Positions 44,947 through 55,342 of a stretch of DNA of 64,000 nucleotides are shown here, piece after piece. Position numbers and translations under genes: made by a program. Under the pieces are notes generated by a model that made no database searches, was not told the DNA's origin, and saw only the letters and a list, made by a program, of their open reading frames with translations. Where the stretch lies: the sequence record JX128259; one strand, written 5' to 3'. The first letter of the stretch is position 1; every line of letters begins with the position of its first letter. This stretch comes from Escherichia phage ECML-134.

Positions 44947-44954
44947 TATAAATA
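44947..44954 (+). promoter_or_regulatory. Late promoter TATAAATA (gene 34 tail-fibre operon)
   Basis: Exact octamer about 35 nt upstream of the gene 34 ATG. Confidence 0.75.
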
Positions 44955-44988: not shown

Positions 44989-47900
44989 ATGGCCGAGATT
45001 AAAAGAAAGTTCAGAGCAGAAGATGGTCTGGACGCAGGTGGCGATAAAATAATCAACGTAGCTTTAGCTGATCGTACCGTAGGAACTGACGGTGTTAACG
45101 TTGATTACTTAATTCAAGAAAACACAGTTCAGCAATATGATCCAACTCGTGGATATTTAAAAGATTTTGTAATCATTTATAATAATCGTTTTTGGGCAGC
45201 AACGGATAATATTCCAAAACCTGCTGGAAATTTTAATAGAATTCGTTGGAAAGCATTACGTACTGATGCCGTATATACAACCGTATCATCTGGACCATAT
45301 CAATTAAAATCCGGAGAAGCAATTTCAGTAGATACATCAGTTGGCAATGACATTGAATTTACTTTACCACCTTCTCCGCTTGATGGAGAAACCGTAATAA
45401 TTCAAGATATCGGTGGAAAACCTGGCATAAATCAGGTTAAAATAAATTCTTCAAATCAGAGTATTGTCAATTTTAGAGGTGAACAGGTACGTTCAGTTTT
45501 AATGACTCATCCAAAGTCACAGATGGTATTCATTTTTAATAATCGTTTGTGGCAAATGTATATTGCTGATTATAGCAGAGAAGCTGCGATTGTTACTCCA
45601 TCGACTGCATATCAAGCACAATCTAATGATTTTATCGTACGTAGATTTACTTCTGCCGCACCGATTAATGTTAAACTTCCAAGATTTGCCAATCATGGAG
45701 ATATCATTAATTTCGTTGATTTAGATAAATTAAATCCACTTTATCATACAATTGTTACAACATATGATGAAACGACGTCAGTGCAAGAAGTTGGAACTCA
45801 TTCCATTGAAGGCCGTACATCGATTGACGGTTTCTTGATGTTTGATGATAATGAGAAATTGTGGAGATTGTTTGACGGGGATAGTAAAGCACGTTTACGC
45901 ATTATAACAACTAATTCTAATATTCGTCCAAATGAAGAAGTCATGGTATTTGGCGCGAATAACGGAACAACTCAGACAATTGAGCTTCAGCTTCCGACTG
46001 ATATTTCTGTTGGTGATACTGTTAAAATTTCCATGAATTACATGAGAAAAGGACAAACAGTTAAAATCAAAGCTGCCGGTGAAGATAAAATTGCTTCTTC
46101 AGTTCAATTGCTGCAATTCCCAAAACGTTCAGAATATCCGCCTGAAGCTGAATGGGTAACAGTTCAAGAATTAGTTTTTAACGGTGAAACTAATTATGTT
46201 CCAGTTTTACAACTTGCTTATATAGAAGATTCTGATGGAAAATACTGGGTTGTACAGCAAAACGTTCCAACTGTAGAAAGAGTAGACTCTTTAAATGCTT
46301 CTACTAGAGCAAGATTAGGCGTAATTGCTTTAGCTACGCAAGCTCAAGCAAATGCTGATTTAGAAAGTTCTCCACAAAAAGAATTGGCAATTACTCCAGA
46401 AACGTTAGCTAATCGTACTGCTACAGAAACTCGCAGAGGTATTGCAAGAATAGCAACTACTGCTCAAGTGAATCAGAACACCACATTCTCTTTTGCGGAT
46501 GACCTTATCATCACTCCTAAAAAGCTGAATGAAAGAACTGCTACAGAAACTCGTAGAGGTGTTGCTGAAATTGCTACGCAGCAGGAAACTAATACAGGTA
46601 CTGATGATACTACAATCATCACTCCTAAAAAGCTTCAAGCTCGTCAAGGTTCTGAATCATTATCTGGTATTGTAACTTTTGTATCTACGGCGAGTGCTAC
46701 TCCAGCTTCTAGTCGTGAATTAAATGGTACAAATGTTTATAATAAAAACACTAATAATTTAGTTGTTTCGCCAAAAGCACTTGATCAGTATAAAGCTACT
46801 CCAACGCAACAAGGCGCAGTAATTTTAGCAGTTGAAAGTGAAGTAATTGCTGGACAAAGCCAAGAAGGATGGGCAAATGCGGTTGTAACGCCAGAAACGT
46901 TACATAAAAAGACATCAACTGATGGAAGAATTGGTTTAATTGAAATTGCTACGCAAAGTGAAGTTAATACAGGAACTGACTATACTCGTGCAGTCACTCC
47001 TAAAACTTTAAATGACCGTAGAGCAACTGAAAGTTTAAGTGGTATAGCTGAAATTGCTACGCAAGTTGAATTCGACGCAGGCGTCGACGATACTCGTATC
47101 TCTACACCATTAAAAATTAAAACCAGATTTAATAGTACTGATCGTACTTCTGTTGCTACTCTATCTGGATTAGTTGAATCAGGAACTCTCTGGGACCATT
47201 ATACCCTTAATATTCTTGAAGCAAATGAGACACAGCGTGGTACACTTCGTGTAGCTACACAAGTTGAAGCTGCTGCAGGAACATTAGATAATGTTTTAAT
47301 AACTCCTAAAAAGCTTTTAGGTACTAAATCTACTGAAGCGCAAGAAGGTGTTATTAAAGTTGCAACTCAGTCTGAAACTGTGACTGGAACATCAGCAAAT
47401 ACTGCTGTATCTCCAAAAAATTTAAAGTGGATTGTGCAGAGTGAACCAACTTGGGCAGCAACTACTCTGATAAGAGGGTTTGTTAAAACTTCATCTGGTT
47501 CAATTACATTCGTTGGTAATGATACCGTTGGTTCAACGCAGTCATTAGAATCATATGAGAAAAATGGTTATGCAGTATCACCATATGAATTAAATCGCGT
47601 ATTAGCAAATTATTTGCCATTAAAAGCAAAAGCTGTAGATAGTAATTTATTAGATGGTCTAGATTCGCTCCAGTTCATTCGTAGGGACATTGCACAAACA
47701 GTTAATGGTTCACTAACCTTAACCCAACAAACGAATCTGAGTGCCCCTCTTGTATCATCTAGTACTGCTACATTCGGTGGATCAGTTTCAGCAAATAGTA
47801 CATTAACTATTTCTAATACTGGAACGGCAACTCGTCTGATTTTTGAGAAAGGACCTCAAACTGGAACAAACCCGGCTCAAACGATGACAGTCAGAGTGTG

Positions 47901-48866: not shown

Positions 48867-49982
48867 ATGGAAAAATTTATGGCAGAGTTTGGACAAGGAT
48901 ATGTCCAAACGCCATTTTTATCGGAAAGCAATTCAGTAAGATATAAAATAAGCATAGCGGGTTCTTGCCCGCTTTCTACTGCGGGACCATATGTTAAATT
49001 TCAGGATAATCCCGTTGGAAATCAAACATTTAGTGCAGGTCTTCATTTAAGAGTTTTTGACCCTTCTACGGGAGCATTAGTTGATAGTAAGTCATATGCT
49101 TTTTCTGCTTCAAACAATACAACATCTGCCGCTTTTGTCAGTTTCATGAATTCTTTGTCAAACAATAAACTTGTTGCTATATTAACTAGCGGAAAGGTTA
49201 ATTTTCCTCCTGAAGTGGTATCTTGGTTAAGGGAAGCAGGAACTTCAGTTTTTCCATCAGATTCCGTATTGTCAAGATTTGACGTATCATATGCTGCTTT
49301 TTACACTTCTTCTAAAAGAGCTATCGCATTAGAGCATGTTAAACTAAGTAATAGAAAAAGCACAGATGACTATCAAACTATGTTAGATGTTGTATTTGAT
49401 AGTTTAGAAGACGTTGGAGCGACAGGATTTCCAAAAAGAACTTATGAAAGCGTTGAACAATTTATGTCTGCGGTTGGAGGAACTAATAATGAAATTGCGC
49501 GATTGCCAACTTCAGCTGCTATAAGTAAACTTTCTGACTACAATTTAATTCCTGGTGATGTTCTTTATCTTAAAGCACAGTTATATGCTGATGCTGATTT
49601 ACTTGATCTTGGAACTACAAACATATCCATTCGTTTTTATGATGCATCAAATGGATATATTTCCTCTACCCAAGCTGAGTTTACTGGGCAAGCTGGGTCT
49701 TGGGAATTAAAGGAAGATTATGTAGTTGTTCCTGAAAATGCAGTCGGATTTACTATATATGCACAGAGAACTGCTCAAGCTGGTCAAGGCGGAATGAGGA
49801 ATTTAAGCTTTTCTGAAGTATCAAGAAATGGCGGCATTTCAAAACCTGCCGAATTTGGCGTCAATGGTATTCGTGTTAATTATATCGGTGAATCCTCTTC
49901 ACCTCCAGATATAATGGTACTTCCTACACAGGCATCGTCTAAAACTGGTAAAGTGTTTGGACAGGAATTTAGAGAAGTTTAA
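48867..49982 (+). CDS. 35: Long tail fibre hinge connector gp35
   Basis: 371 aa, T4 position. Confidence 0.9.
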   Translation: MEKFMAEFGQGYVQTPFLSESNSVRYKISIAGSCPLSTAGPYVKFQDNPVGNQTFSAGLHLRVFDPSTGALVDSKSYAFSASNNTTSAAFVSFMNSLSNNKLVAILTSGKVNFPPEVVSWLREAGTSVFPSDSVLSRFDVSYAAFYTSSKRAIALEHVKLSNRKSTDDYQTMLDVVFDSLEDVGATGFPKRTYESVEQFMSAVGGTNNEIARLPTSAAISKLSDYNLIPGDVLYLKAQLYADADLLDLGTTNISIRFYDASNGYISSTQAEFTGQAGSWELKEDYVVVPENAVGFTIYAQRTAQAGQGGMRNLSFSEVSRNGGISKPAEFGVNGIRVNYIGESSSPPDIMVLPTQASSKTGKVFGQEFREV

Positions 49983-50013: not shown

Positions 50014-50021
50014 TATAAATA
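50014..50021 (+). promoter_or_regulatory. Late promoter TATAAATA (gene 36)
   Basis: Exact octamer just after the terminator following gene 35. Confidence 0.75.
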
Positions 50022-50044: not shown

Positions 50045-50734
50045 ATGGCTGATTTAAAAGTAGGTTCAACTGTGGGTGGATCTGTCATTTGGCATCAAGG
50101 AAATTTTCCATTGAATTCAGCCGGTGACGATGTACTCTACAAATCATTTAAAATATATTCAGAATATAATAAACCGCAGGCAGCTGATAACGATTTCGTT
50201 TCTAAAGCTAATGGTGGCACAAAGTCTAGAGGTTTCCAAAAAGAAGTAGAATTTAAAGAAGGCGTTAAGATTTCTGCGACGTTTTCTGGTGGTTCAGACC
50301 TGAATGGGTTATATTCTGGCAATGGAGATGGAGCTTCCAGAGAAAAAGCTAACATGGATTTACATTCATGGTACGGCATTGGTATTTGGAATACATGCAC
50401 AGGTGATGGGGTCCAGGGACGCACAATCTGGTTTAATGCCAGGCGTGGTACAATTGAAACAGTTGGCGATATTGTTTCAGGCCGACAAGTTATTTCTAAT
50501 GCTTCAGTACCGACCGGCCCAGCACACTTAACTCGCAAAGATTATGTCGATGGAGCAATAAATACTGTTACGACAAATGCAAACTCTAGAGTGTTACGAT
50601 CTGGTGACACTATGACAGGTAATTTAACAGCACCAAACTTTTTCTCGCAGAATCCTGCATCTCAACCCTCACATGTTCCACGATTTGACCAAATCGTGAT
50701 TAAGGATTCTGTTCAAGATTTCGGCTATTATTAA
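50045..50734 (+). CDS. 36: Long tail fibre distal connector gp36
   Basis: 229 aa; late promoter upstream. Confidence 0.9.
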
Positions 50735-50742
50735 GAGGACTT

Positions 50743-53700
50743 ATGGCTACTTTAAAACAAATACAATTTAAAAGAAGCAAAACTGCAGGTCAACTTCCTG
50801 CTGCTTCAGTATTAGCCGAAGGTGAATTGGCTATTAATTTAAAAGATAAAACAATTTTCACAAAAGATGACTCAGGCAATGTTATAGAATTAGGTTTAAA
50901 ATATGGAGGAACAATTGATGGTTCTTTAACTGTTAATGGAAATATAATTGGAAATTTAACAGGTAACGCTGCAACTGCAACGAAATTAAAAACAGCACGA
51001 AAAATTAATGGTATATCCTTTGATGGGTCAAAAGATATCACGCTAACTCCATCTGACATAAATGTCAATAGCACAACGTTTATAAAAAATAACGGCGAAT
51101 TACCTGTTGACGCTAATTTAGATGAATATGGGCCCACTGAAGAGTATCTTGGCGTTTGGTCGAAATCTACTTCAACAAATGCGCAACCGGCAAATAAATT
51201 CCCAGAAGAAAATGCCGTAGGTGTACTAGAAGTATTTGTGGCCGGTCAATTTGCTGGTACTCAGAGATATACTGTAAGATCTGGTAACGTATATGTTCGA
51301 TCTTTGTCTGCTAAATGGAACGGTGTTAACGGTCCGTGGGGAGTTTGGCGTAATGTTCAAGCGTCAACTCGTCCACTTTCACAAACGATTGACCTTGATA
51401 GCTTGGGAGAATTAGAACATTGCGGCTTATGGCGAAATAGTTCAAGTTCTATCGCATCGTTTGACCGTCATTATCCAGAAGAAGGAGCAGCCGCACAAGG
51501 ATTTTTGGAAATTTTTGAGGGTGGTTTATACACAAGAACTCAACGTTATACAACTAGATTTGGTGTTGTTTATACTCGCTGTCTTGCTGCTGCATGGGAT
51601 GCATCTGCGCCTAAATGGGGACCGTGGCAACAAGTCGGTAATGTCACACCGGCGACTTTCTATGACGGAGACCTGAATGATTTTAAAGCTCCTGGGTTAT
51701 ATAACATTTTAGGCACTGATGCCGTTATTAACTGTCCTACAGGTGAAGGTTTGCCGACTGTTATTGTTGGTTTGCTGGAAGTTAAACAGCGTGCTTCTGG
51801 CGGTGCTATTTTCCAAAAATTTACTACTGCCGGAACGGCTTCAACTACTCGCGATCGTATTTTTGAGCGTGCATATACTGGTGGTGCGTGGGGTGCATGG
51901 AACGAAGTATATACATCTTATTCTCTGCCAATTACTTTGGGTATGGGTGGTATTAAAGCTCAATTAGCGGAGTTAGATTGGCAAACCTTTGATTTTGTCC
52001 CTGGTAGTATGTTTAGTGTTCCTTTGAACAAAATAAAGAATATGCCAGCAAATATGGATTGGGGCACGATTGATGGAAACCTGGTTATGTTTTCCGTTGG
52101 TCCTAGCGAACGCACTAGCACAGGACGTACTGTTCAGATTTGGCGCGGCACCGTATCCCAGACAAACTACCGTTATTTTGTCGTTCGTGTGTTCGGTAAT
52201 TCTGGAAATAGAACTTGCACAGTTCGTCGTGTTGTTCTTGAAGATGGTCGCCACACATGGACAGCTCAACAAGATTTTAATGGCGCAGTTAACTTTAACT
52301 CTACTGTTAACCTTAATAACACTACCACATTTAAAACAGAAGTTAAATTTCGCTCATTGAATGCATTCCGTATGTATGGCGGAAAATTTGGTACATTTTT
52401 ACGTAATGATGGAGAGAGTCTTTATATTCTTTCCACCGACGAAGATGATCAACATGGAAACTTTAATACAAATAGACCTTTCCGTTATGAATTAAGAACT
52501 GGTGATGTTACTTTGGGTGGTGCTAGTGGTGCTAACGTTTTAAAATTAAAACGTGATTCTCTCACCGCATTTTTTGGTGGTGATATTAACATGAAAGGCA
52601 CGATGACTTTTGACGCCGGACGTTTAGGATCACGAGATTATTTTAAATTTAACCATTGGGGTGATAGTAATAATGCTCGTGATAACATTATTCAGTTAGA
52701 AGATAGCAAAGGCGTTCATTTTTCCACTGAACGTACTTTAGCGACTGGTGCAATTAAAACTAGATTCTTTGGCGAAACATTCACTGACGGGACATTATAC
52801 CTAAATCAGATGAATAATAGTTCTGAACGATTCTCTATCAACAATTGGGGAAGTTCAGAAGTTGGTCGCGCGGCAGTATTGGAAGTCGGCGATTCCAAAG
52901 GTTATCACTTCTATACGGAACGTAGAACAGATGACACCGTTTTATTTTCTGTAGCTGGTGCTTTGACCGTGCGTGGACCTAACGGAATAACCATCAAAAA
53001 CTCAACTGGTGCACGCCATATCTGGTTTAGAGATGACAGCGAATCGGAAAAGGCTGTTATTTGGGCGACCGATGAGGGTATTTTACATATTCGCAATAAC
53101 AACGGTGGACAATTTAGTCATCACTTCCAGGGCGCAATGATTAAACTGGAAGGGCGTGTTCCTTATGATGCAACAAAGGGGATTATCCGTGGTGAAGTTG
53201 ATGGTGGTGCATATGTTGCATGGAGAGACCGCCCTGCTGGTTTGTTGGTTGACTGCCAGAAAAGTATTGACAGTGCTCATGCTGTTTGGAAAGCGGTTGA
53301 TTGGGGGCGTCAATATATCGCTGCTATGGACGTTCACTGTCCGGGTGATGGTAATAATACTGCGACAGCGATTCTTCATGTTCAGGCTGCTGATTATCAA
53401 TTCCACGCAAGCGGAGAATTCGTTACCAGTGGTAACGGAAACTTTAACGATGTGTATATTCGTTCTGACCGTCGTCTGAAAATTAATGTTGAAGATTATA
53501 CCGGAAATGCGTTAAGTTTGATTGGTAAGCTGAAAGTGAAAACTTACGATAAAGTTAAATCTCTTAAGGACCGTGAAATTATCGGTCATGAGATTGGCAT
53601 TATCGCACAGGATTTACAAGAAATATTACCGGAAGCGGTGAAATCTTCAAAAGTTGGCAATCTTGATAATCCAGACGATGTTCTGACAATTTCTAACTCG

Positions 53701-53817
53701 GCAGTGAATGCTCTTTTAATTAAGGCTATTCAGGAAATGAGTGAAGAAATTAAAGAATTGAAAACTCCTTTCTTTACTAAAATTGCTCGCAAAATTAGTA
53801 AATATTTTAAATTCTAA
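50743..53817 (+). CDS. 37: Long tail fibre distal subunit gp37 (T2/T6-type, with C-terminal chaperone-like module)
   Basis: 1024 aa; N-terminus [13 protein letters not shown]... conserved with T4 gp37; no His-rich T4-type tip; C-terminal ...[21 protein letters not shown]... Confidence 0.92.
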
Positions 53818-53822
53818 CAACA

Positions 53823-53843
53823 AGGGGGCAACGCCCCCCTTTG
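53823..53843 (+). terminator. Hairpin after gene 37 (weak T-run)
   Basis: GGGGGC-AAC-GCCCCCC then TTTGG. Confidence 0.5.
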
Positions 53844-53854
53844 GAGTATAAATT

Positions 53855-54655
53855 ATGGCAGTAGTTGGTGTTCCTGGTTGGATTGGAAGTTCAGCCGCAA
53901 ATGAAACAGGACAAAGATGGATGAGTCAAGCGGCTGGACAATTAAGATTGGGTGTTCCTTGCTGGATGAGTCAATTTGCAGGTCGCTCGCGAGAAATTAT
54001 TCATACTGTAGGAGCAAACCACAATTTTAATGGTCAGTGGTTCCGTGATAGATGCTTTGAAGCTGGCGGTGCACCTATTGTATTCAATATTGTTGGTGAT
54101 ATCGTTTCTTATTCTAAAGATGTACCGCTTTTCTTTATGTATGGTGACACTCCTAACGAATACGTTGTCCTTAATATTCATGGTGGTGTCCATATGTGGG
54201 GTCGAGGTGGTAATGGTGGATACACTCACTCAGGTGGAGATGGTAACGGTACACAAGGCGGTCATGTTATTCAAAATGATATCGGTGGACGGCTTCGTAT
54301 TTGGAACTACGGTGTTATAGCTGCTGGCGGTGGTGGCGGTGGTGGTATTGCATATCGTCCACACTCAGGGGCAAACTGGCAAGATATCGGTGGCGGTGGC
54401 GGTCGACCTTTCGGTGGTGCTGGCGGTGGCGGTTATTCCGGTGGTGCTGCTTCTTATGAAGGTCCGGGTGGTGGTTACAACTATGGTAACGCACACTCCG
54501 GCGCGGGTGGTAATGCTGGCGCTGCTGGTCAGAATGCATGGTCTGATGGCGGTAAAGTTCTTAAAGTTGGTGTTGGTGGTGCTTCTGGTCATGCCGTGTT
54601 TGGATCTTCTCCAACGTGGCAAAACGTTGGAATAATATATGGTCCAAGAGTATAA
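53855..54655 (+). CDS. 38: gp38 receptor-recognising adhesin (T2/K3-type, glycine-rich)
   Basis: 266 aa with conserved Gly-rich tracts (GGGGGGG, GGGGG) separating variable segments. Confidence 0.85.
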
Positions 54656-54685
54656 TTTGAATAAATATCCTTAAAAGGAGGGTCT

Positions 54686-55342
54686 ATGGCAGCACCTAGA
54701 ATATCATTTTCACCCTCTGATATTCTATTTGGTGTTCTAGATCGCTTGTTCAAAGATAACGCTACCGGGAAAGTTCTTGCTTCCCGAGTAGCTGTCGTAA
54801 TTCTTTTATTTATGATGGCGATTGTTTGGTATAGGGGAGATAGTTTCTTTGAGTACTATAAGCAATCAAAGTATGAAACATACCGTGAAATTATTGAAAA
54901 GGAAAGAAATGCACGCTTTGAATCTGTCGCCCTGGAACAACTCCAGATAGTTCATATATCATCTGAGGCAGACTTTAGTGCGGTGTATTCTTTCCGCCCT
55001 AAAAACTTAAACTATTTTGTTGATATTATAGCATATGAAGGAAAATTACCTTCAACAATAAGTGAAAAATCACTTGGAGGATATCCTGTTGATAAAACTA
55101 TGGATGAATATACAGTTCATTTAAATGGACGTCATTATTATTCCAATTCAAAATTTGCTTTTTTACCAACTAAAAAGCCTACTCCCGAAATAAACTACAT
55201 GTACAGTTGTCCATATTTTAATTTGGATAATATCTATGCTGGAACGATAACCATGTACTGGTATAGAAATGATCATATAAGTAATGACCGCCTTGAATCA
55301 ATATGTTCTCAGGCGGCCAGAATATTAGGAAGGGCTAAATAA
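54686..55342 (+). CDS. t: Holin T
   Basis: 218 aa; single N-terminal TM helix and large periplasmic domain; T4 length. Confidence 0.93.
   Translation: MAAPRISFSPSDILFGVLDRLFKDNATGKVLASRVAVVILLFMMAIVWYRGDSFFEYYKQSKYETYREIIEKERNARFESVALEQLQIVHISSEADFSAVYSFRPKNLNYFVDIIAYEGKLPSTISEKSLGGYPVDKTMDEYTVHLNGRHYYSNSKFAFLPTKKPTPEINYMYSCPYFNLDNIYAGTITMYWYRNDHISNDRLESICSQAARILGRAK

Follow-up and report, generated by a model that had tools for sequence, protein, structure and literature searches.

The mosaic gene 38 of Escherichia phage ECML-134 encodes a predicted Ox2-type gp38 adhesin

Introduction

The gene between g37 and the holin gene t is called gene 38 in T-even phages even where its products are unrelated in sequence. 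The predominant gp38 of T-even phages is a receptor-recognising adhesin, and T4 has swapped its distal g37 and its g38 for lambda-like phage sequence (PMC3157838; PMC6851490). Which kind of gp38 is encoded by the glycine-rich gene 38 of Escherichia phage ECML-134, and which receptor would an adhesin of this sequence recognise? ECML-134 is one of the three phages in the FDA-cleared EcoShield cocktail, developed against E. coli O157:H7. Here we analyse gene 38 and its surroundings in a stretch of 64,000 nucleotides of the ECML-134 sequence record JX128259 (hereafter the window). The best explanation, to which we give a probability of roughly 0.88, is that the gene specifies an Ox2-type gp38 fibre-tip adhesin that is produced late with gp36 and gp37. 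Published work already covers this protein and its family, including architecture, fold and the mechanism of recombination, and the arrangement is the majority configuration among T-even phages.

The gene 38 locus and its expression signals

Gene 38 lies on the + strand and ends with a stop codon at 54653-54655, as read from the ORF list and the sequence (Table 1). Its product is exceptionally rich in glycine, which accounts for 69 of the 266 residues (25.9%) and for 38.5% of residues 116-250, compared with 4-12% in the products of the neighbouring genes g34, g35, g36, g37 and t. The Gly codons are GGT or GGC in 59 of 69 cases, which explains why the GC content reaches 54% across 54200-54604 vs 36% in the whole window. 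The gene is flanked upstream by g37 and downstream by the holin gene t (54686-55342), whose product matches Pfam Phage_holin_T with E=6e-117. The surrounding gene order, g34-g35-g36-g37-g38-t-asiA-arn-motA-52, is that of T4, RB32, T6 and T2.

Table 1. Coordinates of gene 38, its predicted domains and associated features in the window.
Feature	Position	Strand	Basis or remark
T4-type late promoter consensus TATAAATA upstream of g36	50014..50021	+	exact match
Gene 37, distal half-fibre subunit, 1024 aa, predicted gp38 docking partner	50743..53817	+	ORF; Pfam Gp34_trimer and Peptidase_S74
gp37 C-terminal intramolecular chaperone, residues 908-1024	53464..53814	+	predicted auto-cleaved; Peptidase_S74
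GGAG Shine-Dalgarno of gene 38	53843..53846	+	8 nt 5′ of ATG; direct sequence reading
Gene 38, predicted 266-aa gp38 receptor-recognising adhesin	53855..54655	+	ORF starting with ATG; Pfam and PDB matches; stop codon counted in
gp38 N-terminal attachment domain, residues 1-42, W9/W22/W37	53855..53980	+	Pfam Gp38_N; 6F45_D alignment
gp38 conserved body, residues 43-115, beta-helix-domain homologue	53981..54199	+	DNA T6-like, not Ox2-like
Specificity cassette, residues 116-251: 5 GRMs, 4 HVSs and one conserved stretch	54200..54607	+	panel alignment
GRM1	54200-54220	+	panel alignment, Trojet scheme
HVS1	54221-54256	+	panel alignment, Trojet scheme
Conserved stretch in cassette between HVS1 and GRM2	54257-54325	+	panel alignment
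GRM2	54326-54346	+	panel alignment, Trojet scheme
HVS2	54347-54388	+	panel alignment, Trojet scheme
GRM3	54389-54415	+	panel alignment, Trojet scheme
HVS3	54416-54499	+	panel alignment, Trojet scheme
GRM4	54500-54529	+	panel alignment, Trojet scheme
HVS4	54530-54574	+	panel alignment, Trojet scheme
GRM5	54575-54607	+	panel alignment, Trojet scheme
Conserved C-terminal motif, residues 252-266	54608..54652	+	separate recombination patch by mismatch bins

An exact match to the T4-type late promoter consensus precedes g36, and a second exact match on the + strand is found upstream of g34 at 44947. We scanned positions 53500-54900, which take in the 3′ part of g37 and all of g38, and found no terminator-like site in this interval. 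Given the late promoter before g36 and the absence of terminator-like sites from 53500-54900, g36, g37 and g38 probably form a late co-transcript that likely starts at the promoter at 50014. The 37-nt spacer between g37 and g38 contains a GC-rich hairpin, GGGGGC-AAC-GCCCCC (window 53824-53838), followed by just three T. This hairpin is not a canonical terminator, and as its stability is matched by 16 of 200 shuffles (z=-1.6) we do not claim it as a regulator; more speculatively, it could modulate the gp37:gp38 expression ratio.

Family membership and domain layout of gp38

The earlier note on this DNA had described a 266-aa ORF with poly-Gly tracts after gene 37 and had assigned it to the adhesins of the T2, K3 and Ox2 type. 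Coordinates, length and both tracts (residues 156-167 and 178-197) were confirmed, and the assignment is borne out by domain and structure matches over the length of the protein. Residues 1-42 match Pfam Gp38_N (PF21721; E=1.5e-19, 70.1 bits against a cut-off of 25), and residues 47-266 match Pfam GP38 (PF05268; E=1.6e-66, 224.7 bits against a cut-off of 25) over profile positions 1-218 of 218. Among known structures, PDB 9V85, the receptor-binding domain of PP01 gp38, matches residues 38-266 (E=4.4e-65), and S16 gp38 in PDB 6F45_D matches residues 5-263 (E=2.3e-44). Both align end to end with every glycine-rich motif (GRM) in register. Additionally, the protein is 95.1% identical to the product of Ox2 gene 38 over all 266 aa and 88% identical to RB32 gp38. 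As judged from these alignments, the glycine-rich pattern is a conserved signature of PF05268 and no chance feature, and the gene 38 product is a T2/K3/Ox2-type receptor-recognising gp38 adhesin rather than a T4-type chaperone. Alignment with 9V85 and 6F45 further predicts a three-layer polyglycine-II (PGII) sandwich fold; a single-sequence AlphaFold2 run gave an unusable model (mean pLDDT 32.2, pTM 0.17).

The layout in Table 1 is based on an alignment of 17 adhesins, comprising the window, SCS4, Ox2, RB32, T6, T2 and 11 IMG/VR loci, on which we drew the boundaries of the GRMs and of the hypervariable segments (HVSs) after the five-GRM/four-HVS scheme of Trojet. Mean column entropy in this alignment ranged from 0.04 to 0.73 in the GRMs and from 1.23 to 1.58 in the HVSs. 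Residues W9, W22 and W37 coincide in the alignment with tryptophans of S16 gp38 (6F45_D) and are invariant across the 17 sequences. In S16, three tryptophans of gp38 plug into three pockets of the gp37 trimer (PMC6851490). Altogether, the S16 gp38-gp37 tip (6F45) and PP01 gp38 (9V85) align with the window in the Trp triad (6F45), the beta-helix body, the GRM scaffold and the C-terminal motif; however, both of these proteins bind OmpC, and their hypervariable loops are unlike those of the window. We know of no structure that shows loops of the Ox2 type or gp38 bound to OmpA.

The partner gp37 and the neighbouring tail-fibre proteins

The C-terminal region of gp37 matches S16 gp37 in 6F45 (chain A) with E=7.6e-6. 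Peptidase_S74 spans residues 908-967, the motif SDRRLK begins at residue 908, and the piece from there to the C-terminus is 117 aa long. Cleavage of gp37 has been documented for T2 and T6 by Trojet 2011 (PMC3157838), and by analogy with these homologues the chaperone of gp37 is predicted to cleave itself off, which would expose the tip that gp38 caps. Just before the cleavage site (window 53000-53463, gp37 residues ~750-907), gp37 is RB32-like, whereas T6 and Ox2 share a different, shorter type. The N-terminal attachment type of gp38 is shared by the window, RB32, T6 and Ox2 despite this difference in the gp37 tip. One gp38 N-terminal subtype thus pairs with at least two gp37 tip subtypes.

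Sequence exchange is also visible in genes further upstream. The centre of gp36 (229 aa; residues ~60-150, window 50200-50600) is unalignable at the DNA level with T4, T6, T2 and RB32 and carries small insertions; the same segment is identical in SCS4 and near-identical in T4_ev240. Since the gp36 centre cannot be aligned to T4, T6, T2 or RB32, the distal-fibre mosaic begins within g36, not at g37. A patch in gene 34 (window 45200-45800) is 74-90% identical to T4 and SCS4 between flanks of 94-99% identity and constitutes a local mosaic segment. In the hinge protein gp35, residues 58-125 (window 49038-49241) match Pfam ILEI (interleukin-like EMT inducer, PF15711; E=4.8e-8, 33.8 bits, cut-off 27), a family name that is unexpected for a phage hinge protein.

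Mosaic structure of gene 38

We mapped the mosaic by counting mismatches against relatives in 50-nt bins. SCS4 shows zero mismatches from 53455 to 54604 and then 8 in the bin 54605-54654, which covers the C-terminal motif together with residue 251 and the stop codon; the closest relative in this last bin is locus L009, with 3 mismatches. T6 differs by 1-11 mismatches per 50 nt over 53705-54204 (1-7 within g38, 53855-54204, and 1-5 over 54005-54154), and the count jumps to 16-37 across 54205-54604. Ox2 has its highest counts, 9-13 per 50 nt, over 54005-54154, and 0-5 elsewhere, including 54205-54604. At the protein level, residues 43-115 are 99% identical to T6 vs 93% to Ox2. The 13 substitutions that separate Ox2 gp38 from that of the window are distributed as 7 in residues 14-83 (5 of them in 52-83, the T6-like zone), 3 in the loops and 3 in the C-terminal motif.

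These counts show that a ~400-bp Ox2-type block (54205-54604), with all four HVSs, sits in a T6-like frame. The junctions of the cassette fall at about GRM1 and just past GRM5, with the C-terminal motif forming another patch of its own. In laboratory crosses between RB5 and RB32 the same unit moved, with no exchange between GRM1 and GRM5 (Trojet, PMC3157838). The mosaic of gene 38 also fits Tetart et al., and the mechanism of recombination at conserved motifs was published between 1998 and 2011. Gene 38 of ECML-134 is a clean natural case of a 400-bp specificity cassette moving as one unit.

Proposed function of gp38 and its likely receptor

In the mechanism that we propose, gp37 would trimerise with the aid of its own C-terminal intramolecular chaperone, which would then be removed at ~Ser908. 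One gp38 would cap the exposed tip of the gp37 trimer through W9, W22 and W37 of its N-terminal helical domain. The glycine-rich motifs would pack as a rigid polyglycine-II sandwich, and this scaffold would present the hypervariable loops for contact with the extracellular loops of an outer-membrane protein. That protein would most probably be OmpA, the loops being near-identical to those of Ox2. A 3:1 stoichiometry of gp37 to gp38 and a location of gp38 on the virion may be carried over from the homologues. In T6, amber mutants in g38 give virions that are normal in morphology and do not adsorb.

The same genomic slot is occupied in T4 by a chaperone, and some close homologues of the present gp38 are labelled 'distal long tail fiber assembly catalyst'. 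Taken together, these would suit a Tfa-like assembly chaperone that acts outside the virion and leaves receptor recognition to the C-terminus of gp37. The labels, however, are a carry-over from T4 gene naming, and T4 gp38, which according to the literature is a chaperone and no virion component, shares only the gene name and the slot between g37 and t. The earlier note had put T4 gp38 at 183 aa, which is correct, compared with 266 aa here, and the two sequences are unrelated. BLASTP gave no meaningful match to T4 gp38 (the best had E=4.7 and spanned 5 residues), and there was no Tfa-type Pfam match; a search for homology to T4-type chaperones had been named in that note as one way to overturn the adhesin reading, which stands. 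A T4-type chaperone is likewise hard to reconcile with how strongly the whole protein matches the adhesin family and crystal structures, one of them of a complex with the gp37 tip, and with gp37 itself, which ends here in a predicted self-cleaving chaperone domain and not in a T4-type receptor-binding tip. At the sequence level the chaperone reading is refuted, and we regard its probability as negligible.

The comparison with T4 also bears on how unusual the locus is. In a 200-nt identity profile, T4 aligns at 93-99% up to ~50200 and again from ~54600, with nothing alignable between; this span, ~50200-54600, runs from mid-g36 through the whole of g37 and g38. Adhesin homologues were found in 810 phage records by tblastn against 50,697 phage records, 35 of them at 95-99% identity, and T4 gp38 homologues in 297 phage records, 207 of them at ≥60% identity. 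The weakest T4-type matches are annotated tail-fibre assembly proteins of non-T4-like phages, such as HK630 (E=6e-10). The record counts agree with the commonness of the adhesin type in the literature. The earlier note had spoken of an adhesin in an otherwise T4-syntenic genome, which suggests an oddity, and while the adhesin and the synteny hold, the adhesin is the majority form (810 vs 297 records). Its further suggestion that the fibre-tip module has a different origin from the T4-like backbone is right insofar as the module is not that of T4, as seen in the unalignable span, but its polarity is reversed, since the published view is that the replacement took place in T4.

With the product read as an Ox2-type adhesin, the loops point to its receptor. 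The closest classical system is Ox2 gene 38 (X05675, CAA29158.1, a 1987 entry), an OmpA-specific adhesin of the same 266 aa with identical HVS1, HVS4 and GRMs, encoded in the same gene order g37-g38-t. Within the 17-sequence panel, HVS1, HVS2, HVS3 and HVS4 of the window are 100, 93, 93 and 100% identical to those of Ox2 and 83, 93, 89 and 87% identical to those of RB32. The corresponding values are 8, 14, 23 and 7% for T6 and 17, 7, 25 and 20% for T2. The Tsx-specific T6 gp38 has the same N-terminal attachment type and resembles the window in its scaffold (GRM1-3 100%, GRM4 60%, GRM5 73% identical), whereas its loops, just 7-23% identical, and its receptor differ. Ox2 binds the extracellular loops of OmpA, and gp38 phylogeny predicts the receptor in that trees group receptor with loop sequence (PMC12032242). 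RB32 depends on OmpA and responds to LPS composition, a specificity that the 400-bp HVS segment confers on RB5, and full infectivity of Ox2 requires more than one receptor (Trojet, PMC3157838). Swaps of gp38 among T6-like phages turn Tsx specificity into OmpA specificity (bioRxiv 10.64898/2026.04.02.716166). Since the HVS loops hardly differ from those of Ox2, we predict OmpA as the primary receptor bound via gp38, and consider this prediction likely to hold. Among relatives at ≥95% identity, receptor data turned up in the literature only for Ox2, and none turned up for ECML-134 itself. EV240, an OmpA-dependent T6-like phage, was rejected as a calibration point, its gp38 being of a T6-like OmpA type just 66% identical to that of the window.

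The same adhesin might instead use OmpC, another porin or the LPS core as its primary receptor, if changes in the loops or the T6-like N-terminal body shifted its specificity. Three loop residues within HVS2 and HVS3 differ from Ox2, namely N174 (K in Ox2), G193 (R) and N209 (D), and single HVS substitutions can retarget gp38, as with Q206L in RB68, which turns OmpF into OmpW specificity (bioRxiv 10.64898/2026.04.02.716166); one HVS3 substitution flips RB68/RB51 between OmpF and OmpW. Henning's group made host-range mutants of Ox2 with other receptors via changes in the hypervariable regions, and the titles of Drexler 1989/1991 and of Morona and Henning 1984 likewise indicate Ox2 host-range mutants. 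Furthermore, ECML-134 was developed against O157:H7, and the O157 phage PP01 uses OmpC. However, L007 and L008, two environmental relatives, also have N174 and G193, and the OmpA-dependent RB32 has G193 and N209. With N174 and G193 in L007 and L008 and G193 in RB32, it is K174 and R193 of Ox2 that look like the odd residues. The loop set as a whole is 83-100% identical to those of two OmpA binders, vs 7-25% to T6 (Tsx) and T2 (FadL/OmpF), and in published gp38 trees the receptor goes with the loop sequence. We therefore consider a primary receptor other than OmpA unlikely. Somewhat less probable still is that N174, G193 and N209, along with the body of T6 type and the separate C-terminal patch, tune the adhesin to OmpA loop variants of pathogenic strains such as O157:H7 or to a second receptor; if this were true, gene 38 would have been retargeted in nature and could be a useful starting point for engineering host range. 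The prediction of OmpA for a component of EcoShield is relevant to foreseeing resistance routes and to cocktail design.

Glycine-codon repeats: recombination and slippage

The earlier note had also proposed the GGT/GGC codon repeats as hotspots for slippage or recombination that would shift host range. The recombination half of this proposal agrees with the 50-nt mosaic, and was already published, whereas slippage is not supported in this gene. Tandem Repeats Finder detected only a 9-bp unit in 2.3 copies (54325-54345) and an imperfect 27-bp unit in 2.1 copies (54391-54449) in gene 38. The lengths of the Gly runs are near-invariant in 17 homologues, giving no support for slippage in gene 38, and we rejected poly-Gly length variation as a host-range switch for this gene. 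Near-fixed run lengths are to be expected, since each GRM, if it forms a PGII helix, needs a fixed length.

The repeat at 54391-54449 makes GRM3 and the start of HVS3 (GGGGYSGGA) alike, with a 13-nt exact repeat, TGGCGGTGGCGGT, at 54391 and 54421. This is consistent with a glycine scaffold grown by internal duplication. The sole length change seen in the panel is in Yersinia phage vB_YepM_ZN18 (MN716856 / NC_054945, L012:1962-2078; recorded host Y. pseudotuberculosis), which has a T6-type gp38 of 277 aa. In its gene 38, GRM2 and HVS2 (GGGGGYYSPFSQMRLTF) are duplicated in tandem as a perfect 51-bp repeat (2.3 copies, 100% match), the unit of which starts and stops in a run of Gly codons. Because the duplication is bounded by such runs, unequal exchange at Gly-codon repeats does occur in nature, and the ZN18 case may be a natural host-range-associated loop duplication.

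Two records in which gp38 is annotated in two pieces were rejected as evidence of slippage, as both have single-base deletions that may be sequencing errors. In vB_EcoM_G5211 (MK327947, L019) a 1-nt deletion falls in codon 32 of gene 38, outside the GRMs, and in RB33 (KM607001, L020) a 1-nt deletion falls in codon 118, in GRM1. Trojet et al. found g38 of RB33 identical to that of RB32 (PMC3157838), so the RB33 record probably contains a sequencing error.

Closest relatives and annotation

The exact sequence of gp38, all 266 residues, is present in NCBI as the ECML-134 protein AFO10773.1 / YP_009102722.1 and belongs to a 90%-identity cluster of 132 members. It is named as a hypothetical protein in GenBank, 'tail fiber protein; host specificity' in RefSeq and 'Receptor-recognizing protein gp38' in UniRef. 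Over its final 24 kb the window can be aligned with hundreds of Tequatrovirus genomes; in the phage collection searched, vB_EcoM_SCS4 comes closest, at 97.1% identity, and the authors of SCS4 name ECML-134 as its nearest relative. Several close homologues in GenBank go under the names 'hypothetical protein', 'tail protein and peptidase' or 'distal long tail fiber assembly catalyst' and could be renamed Ox2-type gp38 adhesin. One further record, that of Pseudomonas phage PsgM02F (OR584013.1, 165 kb), encodes at 132051-132848 a gp38 that is 95.9% identical to the Ox2-type adhesin of the window. The host label of this phage (Pseudomonas coronafaciens pv. garcae) looks doubtful, or an enterobacterial contaminant may have carried the phage.
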